Positions 54,254 through 61,182 of a stretch of 64,000 bases of DNA are shown here, in pieces; positions within the stretch are counted from its first letter, which is position 1, and each line of letters opens with the position of its first letter. Origin of the DNA: a virus. Taxonomy: Duplodnaviria; Caudoviricetes. Position numbers and translations under genes: made by a program. Below the pieces are notes generated by a model. It had not been told where the DNA came from, ran no database searches, and worked only from the letters and a program-made list of their open reading frames with translations. The DNA is taken from the IMG/VR virus record IMGVR_UViG_3300018475_000104, positions 45,535-109,534 of that record; one strand, 5' to 3'.

Positions 54254-54366
54254 TGGCGACCCTTTTCTTATTGGTTAGATTTAGACGTTCGACGTCTAAA
54301 CCATGTATTGACGCAAGCGCGCAGGTGTGGTATAATGAGGGTACCGAAGTAAGGGAGGGAAAAAGT

Positions 54367-54534
54367 ATGAAGTGTGTGTACTTTGAGGATGGGACTATTA
54401 TGATGTGTGAGCGGCAGTGCACTCTGCGCCGCAATATAAAGGTGAAGCTGAGCTGTGATGGACCTATGCGCTACTGGTTCAGGCCTACGGATGCATATCG
54501 TAAGGCTATGATACGTTATCAGCTTATATATTAA
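54367..54534 (+). CDS. Hypothetical early protein
   Basis: Promoter at 54308-54336, RBS GGGAGG, ATG 54367. Confidence 0.7.
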   Translation: MKCVYFEDGTIMMCERQCTLRRNIKVKLSCDGPMRYWFRPTDAYRKAMIRYQLIY

Positions 54535-54657
54535 GCTGATGGCGGCTGTTTAGACGTGTTACGTCTAAATTAGGGGTTGACGATTTTTGGAAAAAATGGT
54601 ATACTATGCTTGCAAGTTGAGGGAAGGACACCCACCAAACCGGAAAGGAAGATAAAA

Positions 54658-55056
54658 ATGCGAGTAACGAAGAACATCAAGGAATACATTGAGCGCCATG
54701 TGAAGGAAAAGGTCTATGCCAAGTATGAGACCGAGCGCCTGGAAGCTGAAAGACAGCGCAAAATTGTCGATGATTTTTGGGAAAAAATGACTGAAACCGT
54801 AGAGCGTCAGGCTGAAACTATGGTCAATGAATTTTTGGAAAATCATGGTGATATCGTAGAAAGAACTTCTGAACGAGATATCGTTAGTTATTGTTCCTAT
54901 GTCCTCCAGCTTAAGGACAAATGCTATATCAATTCTGTGCATAAGTGGCGCGAGCGTGCAAACACGGAAGTTCGAGAAATTGTGGATAATATTATCGTAA
55001 CTCTTGAACTTGGCGGTTCCAAAGCAGATTTGGACAGAATGTTGAGTGAGATTTAA
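54658..55056 (+). CDS. Hypothetical early protein
   Basis: Promoter at 54577-54605, RBS AAGGAAG; followed by a GGAAGGGGAG/CTCCCCTTCC terminator. Confidence 0.75.
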   Translation: MRVTKNIKEYIERHVKEKVYAKYETERLEAERQRKIVDDFWEKMTETVERQAETMVNEFLENHGDIVERTSERDIVSYCSYVLQLKDKCYINSVHKWRERANTEVREIVDNIIVTLELGGSKADLDRMLSEI

Positions 55057-55195
55057 CGGAAGGGGAGTTTCTCCCCTTCCTTTCCTTTTTTTCACAAAAA
55101 AAATTAGACGTCAAACGTCTAAATTAACCGTTGACTTTTTTCAGAAAATCGTTTATAATGAGGTCACAAGGTTGAGAAAGAAAGGGGTCAGAAAA

Positions 55196-55645
55196 ATGAC
55201 TATTTACTTTGACATGGACGGAACTATTGCCAATCTGTATGGTGTGGAAAATTGGCTCGAAAAATTGCGCGCGGAAGATGCGTCGCCGTATCTGGAAGCT
55301 GAGCCGCTGGTAGATATGCGTGAGCTGTCGCGCCTGCTGAATATTCTCCAGCTCAGCGGCGTAAATTTGGGCATTATTTCTTGGCTGAGCAAGGATGCCA
55401 CAAAAGAATATGATAAAATGGTGCGCCGCGCGAAAAGGGAATGGCTTATAAAAAATTTGCCAGCTGTTGAATGGGACGAAATCCATTTGGTAAAATATGG
55501 AACACCGAAACATTCTTGCTGTCGAGAAAATTTTGGAATTTTATTCGATGACAATGATGCCGTGCGTGAAAAGTGGGAAAAACGGGGAACGGCATTTGAT
55601 GTCGGAAATATTTTAGAAATTTTGGAGATTTTCTCCTTAATTTAA
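55196..55645 (+). CDS. HAD-family 5'(3')-deoxyribonucleotidase-like phosphatase
   Basis: IYFDMDGTIA motif I, K..WL, ILFDD motif IV. Confidence 0.85.
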   Translation: MTIYFDMDGTIANLYGVENWLEKLRAEDASPYLEAEPLVDMRELSRLLNILQLSGVNLGIISWLSKDATKEYDKMVRRAKREWLIKNLPAVEWDEIHLVKYGTPKHSCCRENFGILFDDNDAVREKWEKRGTAFDVGNILEILEIFSLI

Positions 55646-55953
55646 CTTCCTTTCTTGCTCGGGGAATCGAAAGATTCCCCAATTTTTTTGGAAAAGTTTT
55701 TTAGACGTTAAACGTCTAAAAGGGATGTTGACTTTGTGTATGGGGTATGGTATTATATACTCGTCAAGGGGCGGTTGGGTCTATGGTGAGAGTCGACTGA
55801 GCCACAAGCGACCGAAAAATTTTTTCAAAAGATTATGAAAAACCCCTTGACAATCTCCCAAAGCTATGGTACAATAAAGGAGCAATGAGGGACAGGAACC
55901 CTCTGCCAAATAAAAAGGGTGGCGACCTTCGCCGATATAGAAAGGAGTCAATC

Positions 55954-56310
55954 ATGACTAATCGCGATTTCCTCAAGACCATCTCTGCCAATGAAACCCT
56001 GCCCGCTGATGTGCGCGAACACGCTGACAAGATGCTTGCGCAGATGGATGCAACGCTTGAAAAGCGCAAGGCTAAGCCCTCTAAGACGGCTGTTGCCAAC
56101 GAGCCTATCAAGGCGGCAATCCTTGAGTGGCTGATGGGGCAGACCGAACCCGTGACTGCCTCCGCCGTTGGTGAAGCGCATGAAATCAGTGTGCAGAAGG
56201 CTTCCTCTCTGTTGCGTGCCTTGCGTGACGAAGAAAAGGTTGTGCAGAGTGAAGTCAAGGTGCCGAAGAAGGGTATGCAGAAGACATATGCGGTGAAAAA
56301 GGGAGAGTAA
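55954..56310 (+). CDS. Putative winged-helix DNA-binding protein (paralogue of 61678..62052)
   Basis: PVTASAVG...ISVQKASSLLRAL...VKVPKKGMQKTY. Confidence 0.7.
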   Translation: MTNRDFLKTISANETLPADVREHADKMLAQMDATLEKRKAKPSKTAVANEPIKAAILEWLMGQTEPVTASAVGEAHEISVQKASSLLRALRDEEKVVQSEVKVPKKGMQKTYAVKKGE

Positions 56311-56443
56311 TCTCCCTTTTTTTTCTCGAAAATAATTTAGACGTAGAGCGTCTAATTTTTCTTCGACAAATCAAAAATTAAAAGTTGACAAATTTAGAAA
56401 TTTTTGGTATAATTTTTATAGAAAATAAAGGGAGGAATTGGTT

Positions 56444-56791
56444 ATGGCAGTTAAAAGTTTGGATAGTAAGTTGCGCGAAAAGTGGGTCAGCACTCTTGTG
56501 CAAATGTTCACCGATGCAGGCGAAGAAGTTGTGCAGTATAAGTCAAATGAAATTTGTTTGCCCGTTCTCGATGATGACGGCAACGAAAAGTGGGTGCAGT
56601 TCGTGGTGAAGGTGCCGAAGGGTAGCCGAGATGGTGACGAGTTCGACGGGTATGCCATGCGCGAAGAATACCAGATGAAGCAGGAAACCAAAGCCGAAAA
56701 AGCGAAAGCCGATGCCGAAAAGAAGGCAAAGAAAATCGAACGCGACCGACAGGCGCGCGAAGCCAAAAAGAAAGCGAGGGCGGAGGAATAA
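56444..56791 (+). CDS. Hypothetical protein with Lys/Glu/Ala-rich tail (paralogue of 59596..59931)
   Basis: SNEICLP...WV...VKVPK...GY..REEY...KIERD shared with the paralogue. Confidence 0.8.
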   Translation: MAVKSLDSKLREKWVSTLVQMFTDAGEEVVQYKSNEICLPVLDDDGNEKWVQFVVKVPKGSRDGDEFDGYAMREEYQMKQETKAEKAKADAEKKAKKIERDRQAREAKKKARAEE

Positions 56792-59595: not shown

Positions 59596-59931
59596 ATGAA
59601 GATTGTAGTTGCCAATGCCGTTCGTTCCAAGTATCTTGACATCATCACCAAGGCTCTTGCTGATGAAGATGTGGGCATGATTGCTTCCAATGCAATTAAC
59701 CTGCCGTTCGTCACCGAAGATGGCGAAGAGGGCTGGGTGGAAATCACCGTCAAAGTCCCCAAGGAAAGCGGTGATGAGGGCTACGGCAAGCGTGAAGAGT
59801 ACACCATGAAGTGTGCTGAGCGTGAAGCCAAGGCCAAGGAAAAGGCGGAAGCCAAGGCACGCAAGATTGAGCGTGACAAGGCGGAGCGTGAAGCACGCAA
59901 AGCCGCCAAGGAAAAGGAAAAGGGTAAATAA
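59596..59931 (+). CDS. Hypothetical protein (paralogue of 56444..56791)
   Basis: Shares motifs with the paralogue; own TTGACA promoter at 59519. Confidence 0.8.
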   Translation: MKIVVANAVRSKYLDIITKALADEDVGMIASNAINLPFVTEDGEEGWVEITVKVPKESGDEGYGKREEYTMKCAEREAKAKEKAEAKARKIERDKAEREARKAAKEKEKGK

Positions 59932-60030
59932 CCCTTTTTCTTTTCAATCGGCTTAGACGTTGAACGCCTAAATTCTTCTTGACACCGCGCGCCTTCTGTG
60001 GTATACTATATTTCGTTAGGAGGTTAAGAC

Positions 60031-60339
60031 ATGAAACAAGATTTCGTCTACTTTATTCAAATTGGCGAACCGAGTGAACGACTTTTCAAAATTGGTACCA
60101 CCAATAACATGAAGCGCCGAATGCGTGAACATGAGAAATATTATGGAAAAAAAGTGGTGGTGCTTTGGCAAAGTCCAGCCTATTCAAAGTGGACTACTTT
60201 GAGGGTTGAGGACAAAATGAAAAATCAGTGGATTGAGGAAGGAGTTTTTGAATATTTGAGGAATGACAGGTTTTTGATTCCCGAAAAAATTAAAGAAGTT
60301 CGAATTAAAGTTAGAAAAGAATATGTGGTGTCAATTTGA
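60031..60339 (+). CDS. GIY-YIG/T5orf172-like nuclease domain protein
   Basis: FVYFIQ...FKIGTTNNMKRRMREH...VE. Confidence 0.75.
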   Translation: MKQDFVYFIQIGEPSERLFKIGTTNNMKRRMREHEKYYGKKVVVLWQSPAYSKWTTLRVEDKMKNQWIEEGVFEYLRNDRFLIPEKIKEVRIKVRKEYVVSI

Positions 60340-60445
60340 CACCACTTTTTTGGAAAATAATTTAGACGTTTTACGTCTAAGTTGGTTGTTGACTCGCGCG
60401 GAAGTGTGTGGTATAATTTGGGTACAAAGTGAGGGAGGAATTAAA

Positions 60446-60634
60446 ATGAGGTTCTACTATAACGAAGGAATGAATATATGTGCCGAAGAAACTTGGGTCA
60501 CAGATTATTTGTTTATGGATGGTATGTTTGATTTAAGAGAAGAGGCATTGGAAGAGTTAAGGACAAAACATGAAGTTTATGGTTGGTTTGAATGTGAAGT
60601 TTCAAATACTATTGATGAAAAGTTTTTTGATTAA
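60446..60634 (+). CDS. Small acidic hypothetical protein
   Basis: Promoter at 60389-60417; RBS GGAGG. Confidence 0.65.
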   Translation: MRFYYNEGMNICAEETWVTDYLFMDGMFDLREEALEELRTKHEVYGWFECEVSNTIDEKFFD

Positions 60635-60648
60635 AAGGAGAAAGAATA

Positions 60649-60831
60649 ATGAGAATTGTAAAATGTGAGAAAATTTTTCTGTCGCAGAACGAAAATGAAA
60701 CTTGGACAAAATTTGAACAAATTCTTGATGGTTTGGAACAAGGAAGTGAAAATCCAAATATAAAAACTTTAATTTGTAAAATTCAAAGTTTGTTGAGTGA
60801 TTTGTGGGAAGAAGTGGAGGATGTTGAATAA
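60649..60831 (+). CDS. Hypothetical protein
   Basis: RBS AAGGAG. Confidence 0.65.
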   Translation: MRIVKCEKIFLSQNENETWTKFEQILDGLEQGSENPNIKTLICKIQSLLSDLWEEVEDVE

Positions 60832-61031
60832 TGAAAGATATTCAACTTTACGATATAAAAAATAATCCAAATAAAGTTAATGTAATTCTCACAGATAATT
60901 GTAAAGAATTTTCAAATATTATTTATATACTCACACAAGGTAACCATTTTAATTTTGATAAAGAAACAAAATGTGCTTTAAAAAATTTAGTAAGTAATAT
61001 TGAAAATTATGTATTTAAGGGAAAAATTTAA
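60831..61031 (+). CDS. Hypothetical protein
   Basis: TAATG coupling; followed by an AGGAAGTCA/TGACTTCCT terminator. Confidence 0.65.
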   Translation: MKDIQLYDIKNNPNKVNVILTDNCKEFSNIIYILTQGNHFNFDKETKCALKNLVSNIENYVFKGKI

Positions 61032-61182
61032 GGAAGTCAAACTGACTTCCTCTTTTTTTATTGCCGACTTAGACGTATCACGTCTAAGTCAAATTTTTTT
61101 TCACTTTAACACACTAAATCGTTAAAGTCAAATTTTTTTCTTAAAAATTTCAATCACTCCACTGCGCGCAAATTTTCGGGTT

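Follow-up and report, generated by a model that had tools for sequence, protein, structure and literature searches.

The window analysed here is a 64,000-nt stretch, the right-hand 64 kb (bases 45535-109534) of the 109,534-bp linear IMG/VR virus record IMGVR_UViG_3300018475_000104, which serves as the reference genome (G000) and comes from an uncultured gut or rumen phage of about 110 kb. Its early region at 54281-61087 carries 13 copies of a 19-bp palindrome, TTAGACGT-N3-ACGTCTAA, of which 11 are exact and two have one mismatch; 0.02 copies were expected from 100 shuffles. The copies were found exactly where a first-pass annotation, made from the sequence without database searches, had placed them. 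That annotation had seen no full copy elsewhere in the window, and this holds for the entire 109,534-bp record outside 54281-61087. The centre triplet varied freely among the 13 copies.

The palindromes punctuate a series of cassettes with the same order of parts: a gene end, a hairpin and T-run terminator, the palindrome, a short spacer, a promoter, a Shine-Dalgarno site and one to three small genes (Table 1). Twelve of the 13 copies precede sigma-A-type promoters with the near-consensus form TTGAC(A/G/T)-17-(TG)nTATAAT. Separate hairpin and T-run terminators were scored before most copies, in line for these with the earlier statement that the palindrome always follows a gene end or terminator. 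Copy 13 (61069) has no promoter and adjoins a field of GTCAAATT and CAGCTG repeats. The products are small early-type proteins: 5′-deoxynucleotidase-like, winged-helix, membrane, AbrB/SpoVT-like, phrog_20187 and T5orf172-domain proteins and several ORFans.

The palindrome is restricted to one class of promoters. G000 has 32 strong sigma-A-type promoters, and the 12 with a palindrome are all in the array; promoters of replication and nucleotide genes and those flanking the array are palindrome-free. Because only 12 of the 32 have it, the genes of the array fit the single-regulator regulon that the annotation had offered as one of two explanations.

The exact palindrome was detected in 78 IMG/VR contig stretches, in co-oriented arrays of up to 23 copies, and the element overall in about 200 stretches with more than 1,100 sites. 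Across about 1,100 sites, the seven outermost bases of both arms hardly varied, while the neighbouring terminators did. Positions 8 and 12 were mostly T and A but were non-complementary (T:T, T:C or A:A) in 19% of the sites, without compensation. The flanks tend to prolong the symmetry (A-T ... A-T).

Relatives have symmetric variants, either TTAGATGT-N3-ACATCTAA (T-type, as opposed to the C-type of G000) or TTAGACG-N5-CGTCTAA. For example, G001 (144.6 kb, complete), which is closest to G000 in its early genes, has 14 T-type copies in the same place and none elsewhere in its genome. The T-type palindrome was found in 118 further IMG/VR stretches, with 518 unique sites, 398 of them with promoters. 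The switch from C6/G14 to T6/A14 is symmetric and lineage-wide: hybrids (C6 with A14 or T6 with G14) numbered four in about 1,100 sites. A single genome, IMGVR_UViG_3300045988_133431 (L048, L252, L273), has mainly T-type copies but also one or more of the C-type, which shows that both specificities can occur together.

In a human-gut clade, the form is TTAGACG-N5-CGTCTAA, and a second palindrome, GTCAY-N5-RTGAC, is added at promoters with gaps of about 50 bp. It sits between the TTAGACG site and the -35 box (L013, L015, L040 and L081, which are 3300045988 contigs) and occurs twice over the promoter of a winged-helix gene (paralogue B, below) in L013, L015, L040 and L081. The terminator stems of this clade are semi-conserved (GTGACGC...GCGTCAC). 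In a more distant complete relative, G002, the palindrome was absent and other inverted repeats were present around the -35 boxes. A DNA-level search of deposited phages, with the array as query, gave no relative, and a full-text literature search for TTAGACGT matched unrelated primers only. A position of the array near the genome end was considered as a further shared feature and dropped, being inconsistent across the complete relatives.

The distance between palindrome and promoter is quantised. The annotation had placed 12 of the 13 copies 7-40 bp upstream of a -35 box, which is correct, but it had missed the stepping by 10 bp: in G000 the gaps are 7-8, 18 or 28-29 bp (Table 1). We analysed 461 unique promoter-linked C-type sites on related IMG/VR contigs, which make about 860 promoter-linked sites together with the 398 T-type ones. 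The C-type gaps clustered at 7-10 bp (265 sites), 17-21 bp (78), 27-32 bp (45), 37-45 bp and 50-58 bp, with almost nothing between the first three classes. A Rayleigh scan of the C-type gaps of 15-60 bp gave R=0.74 at a period of about 10.5-11.2 bp, where the maximum of 2,000 random sets was 0.31. In the independent T-type set, 86% of the gaps were 8-10 bp and the remainder followed a 10.6-bp period. The palindrome centre thus lies at about -53/-54 relative to the promoter or integral helical turns farther upstream, and in both sets the positions differ by integral turns, as expected for action from one face of the helix.

The long spacers are rich in phased A-tracts and their sequences are unrelated to each other, so the gap classes are not copies from one ancestor. 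The gap between the upstream T-run and the palindrome was spread over 0-16 bp without clear periodicity. Phasing with the -35 box and none with the upstream terminator tie the palindrome geometrically to the downstream promoter, on double-stranded DNA.

Upstream of the array, a lone half-site lies within the spacer of the promoter at 52969 (Table 1). The homologous promoters have TTAGACG in G005 and TTAGATG in G001 in their spacers; the half-site thus switches along with the palindrome type. This co-switching makes an explanation by hairpin formation hard, and in this spacer the presumed factor would be in the classical position for repression. The product of the nuclease-like gene in this operon, an early protein of 172 aa, has a PD-(D/E)XK-like motif. 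Its neighbours in the ESM Atlas are restriction endonucleases, some PvuII-like (score 0.93), a placement that we regard as a lead only. This protein was also considered as a candidate and was set aside, having no homologue in the complete array genome G004.

Table 1. Palindrome copies, promoters and selected genes of the early region. Positions are those of the window; open reading frame, ORF.
Feature	Position	Strand	Gap to -35 (bp)	Promoter	Genes served	Upstream terminator	Remarks
Promoter with half-site	52969-52997	+			Operon with nuclease-like gene 53302-53820 (heads it)		Half-site TTAGACG 52975-52981 in -35/-10 spacer, directly after -35
Palindrome 1	54281-54299	+	8	TTGACG-17-TGGTATAAT, 54308-54336	55-aa ORF 54367-54534	54244-54262	
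Palindrome 2	54550-54568	+	8	54577-54605	54658-55056		
Palindrome 3	55104-55122	+	8	55131-55159	5′-nucleotidase-like gene 55196-55645	55058-55080	
Palindrome 4	55701-55719	+	8	P1, 55728-55756	Winged-helix gene 55954-56310	55661	Palindrome-free P2, 55847-55875, feeds the same gene
Winged-helix A, 118 aa	55954-56310	+					Candidate binder; AlphaFold2 pLDDT 89.5; Foldseek: ArsR/SmtB, PadR, MarR-type folds
Palindrome 5	56337-56355	+	29 (A-tract)	Consensus, 56385-56413	56444-56791		A12G variant
Palindrome 6	56811-56829	+	8	56838-56866	56900-57091; membrane protein gene 57107-57574		
Palindrome 7	57610-57628	+	8	57637-57665	AbrB/SpoVT-like gene 57697-58077	57573-57593	
AbrB/SpoVT-like protein, 126 aa	57697-58077	+					PF04014, E 6e-9
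Palindrome 8	58100-58118	+	18	58137-58165	Three small ORFs, 58197-58665	58070-58091	
Palindrome 9	58679-58697	+	18	58716-58744	Conserved 221-aa gene 58779-59444 (phrog_20187)	58651-58672	
Palindrome 10	59472-59490	+	28 (A-tract)	59519-59547	59596-59931 (paralogue of 56444)	59430-59455	
Palindrome 11	59953-59971	+	7	59979-60007	T5orf172-domain gene 60031-60339		T15C variant
Palindrome 12	60362-60380	+	8	60389-60417	Three small ORFs, 60446-61031	60325-60345	
Palindrome 13	61069-61087	none		none		61031-61051	Closes the array
Repeat field	61088-61310	none					GTCAAATT(T) x8 and CAGCTG x5; ends the array; distinct element; conserved in G001
Winged-helix paralogue B, 122 aa	61684-62052	+		61567-61595, palindrome-free			Conserved leader

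These results suggest that the palindrome is an operator, read as double-stranded DNA by a two-fold symmetric (dimeric) regulator of the early regulon; this is our favoured reading and a probable one. Binding by a protein is most likely. The regulator would probably be encoded by the phage, and we give a host factor a much smaller share. The core of the operator would be TTAGACG-N5-CGTCTAA, usually extended to (A)T-TTAGACGT-N3-ACGTCTAA-A(T), with half-site centres about 11 bp apart. It would lie in the zone of the UP element and the C-terminal domain of the RNA polymerase alpha subunit (about -53/-54), or one to four turns farther upstream across A-tract spacers, and always on the helix face of the polymerase bound at the near-consensus sigma-A-type promoter. 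With such a same-face position, the regulator would signal to the polymerase by contact rather than by simple occlusion. It would join the 12 terminator-bounded early cassettes into one regulon, set off from the remaining sigma-A promoters in the genome. As a side effect, palindrome and promoter together, a repeated module of about 60 bp, would supply homology for cassette reshuffling.

The sign of the regulation is a separate question. Timed repression or shut-off of the immediate-early class appears somewhat more plausible, given promoters that are near consensus as they stand and a lone half-site in the classical repression position; activation is a doubtful second choice. No integrase or resolvase (tyrosine or serine recombinase) was found in G000 or in four complete relatives, and PF00589 gave no match in G000, G001, G004, G005 or G002. 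The phage is therefore probably virulent, and the operators would serve control of the lytic programme rather than lysogenic immunity.

Several points weigh against the operator reading. It is not obvious why promoters so near consensus should need an activator, and classical repressor sites overlap the polymerase footprint in a way that a site centred at -54 does not. A perfect palindrome is equally compatible with a hairpin of DNA or RNA, and the symmetric switch from C:G to T:A keeps the pairing. The related sequences are not independent samples, so the site counts overstate the number of independent events, although the diversity of the spacers argues for many such events. The search for a binder among the phage proteins also told against it. 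The AbrB/SpoVT protein, a candidate of the first-pass annotation, has homologues in five of the 78 loci and gave no blastp match at E 1e-5 in the complete genomes G004 (20 sites) and G005 (13 sites); as both bear the array, this protein is ruled out as a reader common to all arrays. Of the two winged-helix paralogues, named there as well, A had its fold confirmed by modelling. At least two such paralogues occur in every array genome examined (G000, G001, G004 and G005), and homologues of A in 37 loci. Their recognition helices, however, do not follow the C/T operator variant, QKA-type helices occurring with both types, and winged-helix homologues were also found in palindrome-free genomes, namely L208 (an 18-kb fragment of a related phage, with homologues of A) and G002. 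We still regard these paralogues as candidates.

Other proteins were tried as binders. A tentative correlation between the residue after QK (A, C or T) in the winged-helix proteins and the operator class was lost once TTAGATGT loci were added. An 87-aa winged-helix protein of the replication module (G000 37715-37978) is present in the four array genomes and absent from G002, but its helix fails to track the operator variant. The paralogues at 56444 and 59596 are not winged-helix proteins: each was predicted to consist of a helix, three strands and a charged helix of 46 residues, and the PDB gave no match. Scanning 10 conserved small proteins against Pfam was uninformative.

Observations around the two winged-helix genes concern their own expression. 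The tandem P1/P2 layout before gene A is also seen in the human-gut clade. In G000, the 90 nt between P1 and P2 (within 55728-55953) end in a weak hairpin and T-run, and a small RNA from this interval is possible. For paralogue B, the promoter (TTGAAA-17-TATAAT) and a leader of about 90 nt with two hairpins (61567-61683) are conserved near base for base across distant clades (L012, L020, L068, L078, L082), which suggests a regulatory leader RNA.

In place of a phage regulator, a conserved host transcription factor could read the palindrome and gate the immediate-early programme on host physiology, the slot taking differing host boxes in each lineage. Immediate-early promoters fire before any phage protein exists, and among the phage proteins examined none tracks the operator variant. 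In addition, L208 (IMGVR_UViG_3300021256_000485), which lacks TTAGACGT, has between 3301 and 12061, in the same inter-cassette position upstream of early promoters, nine Cheo-box-like CGAACATATGTTCG boxes (CGAACAT(A/G)(T/C)GTTCG) and six Rex-like TTGTTAA-N-TTAAC boxes (more fully TTGT(T/G)AA-N-TTAAC). We take these to resemble the Gram-positive LexA (Cheo) and Rex consensus sites. L047 and L070 have three Cheo-like boxes each, beside TTAGACGT sites. The host scan proposed by the annotation nevertheless gave no support for a host regulon: in five metagenome-assembled genomes (MAGs) with array contigs, which may not be the true hosts, the motif (at most one mismatch) was confined to small phage-like contigs, bar one isolated one-mismatch match on a larger contig (G010:C36). 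Among the matches listed, singletons in bacterial genomes were at about chance level or in unrelated taxa; for example, the 19-mer of Paenarthrobacter lies in a conserved divergent intergenic region beside a PucR-like regulator gene, an unrelated site. The variants with C and T at position 6 are discrete, with hardly any hybrids between them, which resembles the outcome of co-evolution with a dedicated partner, and we know of no host factor with this site. A host reader is therefore rather unlikely. A broader version, also unlikely, would have a plug-in slot upstream of early promoters into which lineages insert differing boxes (TTAGAYGT-N3-ACRTCTAA, Cheo/LexA-like, Rex-like or GTCAY-N5-RTGAC), at least some of them read by host regulators. 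If so, a virulent phage would make its immediate-early takeover genes depend on host physiology, be it DNA damage, redox state or whatever signal the TTAGACGT box conveys.

The remaining explanations do without a regulator. The annotation's other proposal was that the palindromes are points of cassette shuffling, and its comparison of synteny breakpoints among relatives could be made for one pair, G000 and G001. The nucleotidase and 54658 cassettes are swapped, the 58197 cassette has moved, and the winged-helix A and 56444 cassettes are elsewhere or missing, while a block of three cassettes (58712-60393) is colinear. Homology blocks at the DNA level, including the reordered ones at 58712-60393, 57104-57578 and 55199-55339, have boundaries no more than about 15 bp from the palindrome-promoter module. 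The junctions thus do coincide with the module, and the layout of terminator, stem, sigma-70-type promoter and Shine-Dalgarno site is that of the promoter early stem-loop (PeSL) cassettes of T4-type phages (PMC2839356, PMC4122927). That recombination is the primary role, with a PeSL-like mobile regulatory cassette driving insertion, deletion and reordering of early genes, is nonetheless improbable. Homologous exchange needs neither an invariant palindrome nor helical phasing with a -35 box, and any repeated 60-bp module would yield shuffling. In PeSLs the stem is a terminator of variable sequence, but the array has terminators apart from the palindrome, and no recombinase was found in G000 and four complete relatives. 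Shuffling would be a by-product only. A nucleic-acid hairpin, whether as a back-up terminator, as a 3′-end stabiliser or processing site of read-through transcripts, or as a cruciform extruded from the DNA, is even less probable. The sequence could form a 7-8-bp stem closed by a 3-5-nt loop, the pairing survives the C:G to T:A switch, and five of the 13 copies score as terminator-like on the + strand where T-rich DNA follows. However, the palindrome sits beyond a proper terminator, no U-tract is conserved on its 3′ side (positions 20-33 are mixed), its arms are invariant in sequence, unlike the structure-only terminators alongside, and pairing at 8:12 is frequently lost with no compensating change. 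Rfam has no family that matches the palindrome, the sole match in 52000-64000 being a hammerhead at 53835-53886. RNA cannot explain the phasing with the downstream -35 box or the functional-looking lone half-site. An operator was therefore preferred to an RNA hairpin, as it had been in the annotation, because of the untranscribed gap after the terminators, the phase of about 10.5 bp with the -35 box, the invariant arms and the co-varying half-site. A selfish element resembling repetitive extragenic palindromes (REPs) and spread by a HUH/RAYT-type transposase is the least credible. It was suggested by an identical 19-mer (centre CCG/CGG) that flanks an IS200/RAYT-like ORF in a bacterial MAG of the candidate phyla radiation (CPR) and recurs in CPR genomes (CPR/Patescibacteria MAG loci L121 3981-4728, with the ORF, and L090, L094 and L126). 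No RAYT-like gene was noticed in the phage, though no dedicated search for one was made. The strict placement relative to promoters, the uniform orientation and the confinement to one regulon are not explained by selfish spread, and the CPR match is what an exact-word search picks up by chance. The CPR 19-mer is presumably a REP-like element whose likeness to the phage palindrome is coincidental.

Further elements were seen near the array. In the repeat field at 61088-61310, about eight GTCAAATT(T) copies are interleaved with five of the 10 CAGCTG sites of the genome; this may represent an origin or iteron field, or a site for winged-helix paralogue B. A single GTCAAATTTTTTT copy (52561-52580) lies at a divergent promoter region, at the opposite end of the early block from the repeat field. 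The late strand, divergent from the early region, is headed by 51114-52418 (- strand), which when read with TAG as glutamine encodes one 435-aa protein with five in-frame TAGs, a C-terminal zinc ribbon and a match to PHROG 5767, 'sigma factor' (E 1e-15). This late sigma-like factor may be translatable only after a TAG-suppression switch. A second copy of the hammerhead region (53240-53298, 86% identical to 53840-53898) has no Rfam match and has CTAAAC in place of CGAAAC, a stretch that we assign to the conserved core; this ribozyme copy may therefore be dead.

If an operator, the element would define a coherent immediate-early regulon, with a cis-element definable from sequence alone, in a large group of uncultivated gut and rumen phages with genomes of 100-190 kb. 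At least some of these phages, this one included, read TAG as an amino acid. The 10.5-bp phasing amounts to a naturally occurring version of the spacing series that are normally constructed to demonstrate face-of-helix regulation, and the strong sigma-A-type promoter, operator and terminator form compact parts. The array also illustrates the exchange of early-gene cassettes between relatives.

Sites that act from one face of the helix are familiar from bacterial promoters. Class I and other upstream contact sites include those of CRP at -61.5, -71.5 and -82.5, the CcpA cre at about -56 at B. subtilis ackA, and p4 of phi29 at A3/A2c. Upstream dimeric sites act on one helical face only, in steps of 10-11 bp, and the same upstream contact by phi29 p4 represses a strong promoter and activates a weak one. 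The likeness of these sites to the palindrome is in geometry alone. The hairpin promoter of the N4 virion RNA polymerase, a single-subunit phage enzyme, has a defined 3-nt loop and needs no sigma-70 promoter; the palindrome is unlike it in both features, as here the loop is free and a sigma-A-type promoter follows 12 of the 13 copies.

In concept, the nearest systems appear to be the immunity-repressor operators of temperate phages, which occur in multiple copies: SPBRE/MrpR, cluster A stoperators and the phiC31 conserved inverted repeats (CIRs). The phiC31 repressor reportedly binds CIRs in many copies in the early region. The stoperators of cluster A mycobacteriophages such as L5 are likewise many operator copies in intergenic DNA of the early region, with variants that co-evolve with the lineage (PMC9283540, PMC6550527). 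They are asymmetric 13-mers, bound by a monomer of the temperate immunity repressor, and block elongation depending on orientation; the sites here are symmetric, lie phased between terminator and promoter, and belong to phages without integrases.

SPBRE is the operator of the master repressor MrpR (YopR) of the Bacillus phage SPbeta (PMC10516654). The present phage shares the yorF-yorL replication module with SPbeta, its DnaE being 39% identical. As with SPBRE, a conserved element in multiple copies stands at sigma-A-type promoters of many early units in a large Firmicutes phage, presumably with one regulator for many promoters. In SPbeta (NC_001884), we extracted a motif common to nine of 10 MrpR-bound promoter regions and took it as SPBRE, its match to the published 15-bp motif being unverified; it is non-palindromic and apparently lies within the core promoter, between -35 and -10. 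The palindrome differs from it in sequence, is symmetric, sits upstream and in phase, and belongs to a probably virulent phage. Because the extracted motif differs in sequence, symmetry and position, the palindrome was judged not to be SPBRE, which serves to maintain lysogeny and whose repressor MrpR has a recombinase fold; no homologue of MrpR, AimR or YonO was found in G000, and a tblastn search with YopR gave no match there.

The analogy with PeSLs (PMC2839356, PMC4122927), drawn already in the annotation, was borne out for the layout, in which each of the arrayed small early genes comes with a stem-loop, a sigma-70 promoter close to consensus and a Shine-Dalgarno site, and for the rearrangement junctions at the module, as seen in the pair G000 and G001. 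It fails for the stem, which in PeSLs is itself the variable terminator; here a separate terminator is followed by an invariant, phased palindrome. Being invariant and phased with the -35 box, this palindrome implies a sequence-specific reader. What is new here is the quantised gaps, the restriction to a promoter class, the symmetric variants in relatives, the co-varying half-site and the differences in cassette order. Among the systems compared, the array stands apart by its combination of an invariant symmetric operator-like site, a strict upstream face-of-helix position, an extra terminator, a TAG-recoding and probably virulent phage, and a very wide distribution.

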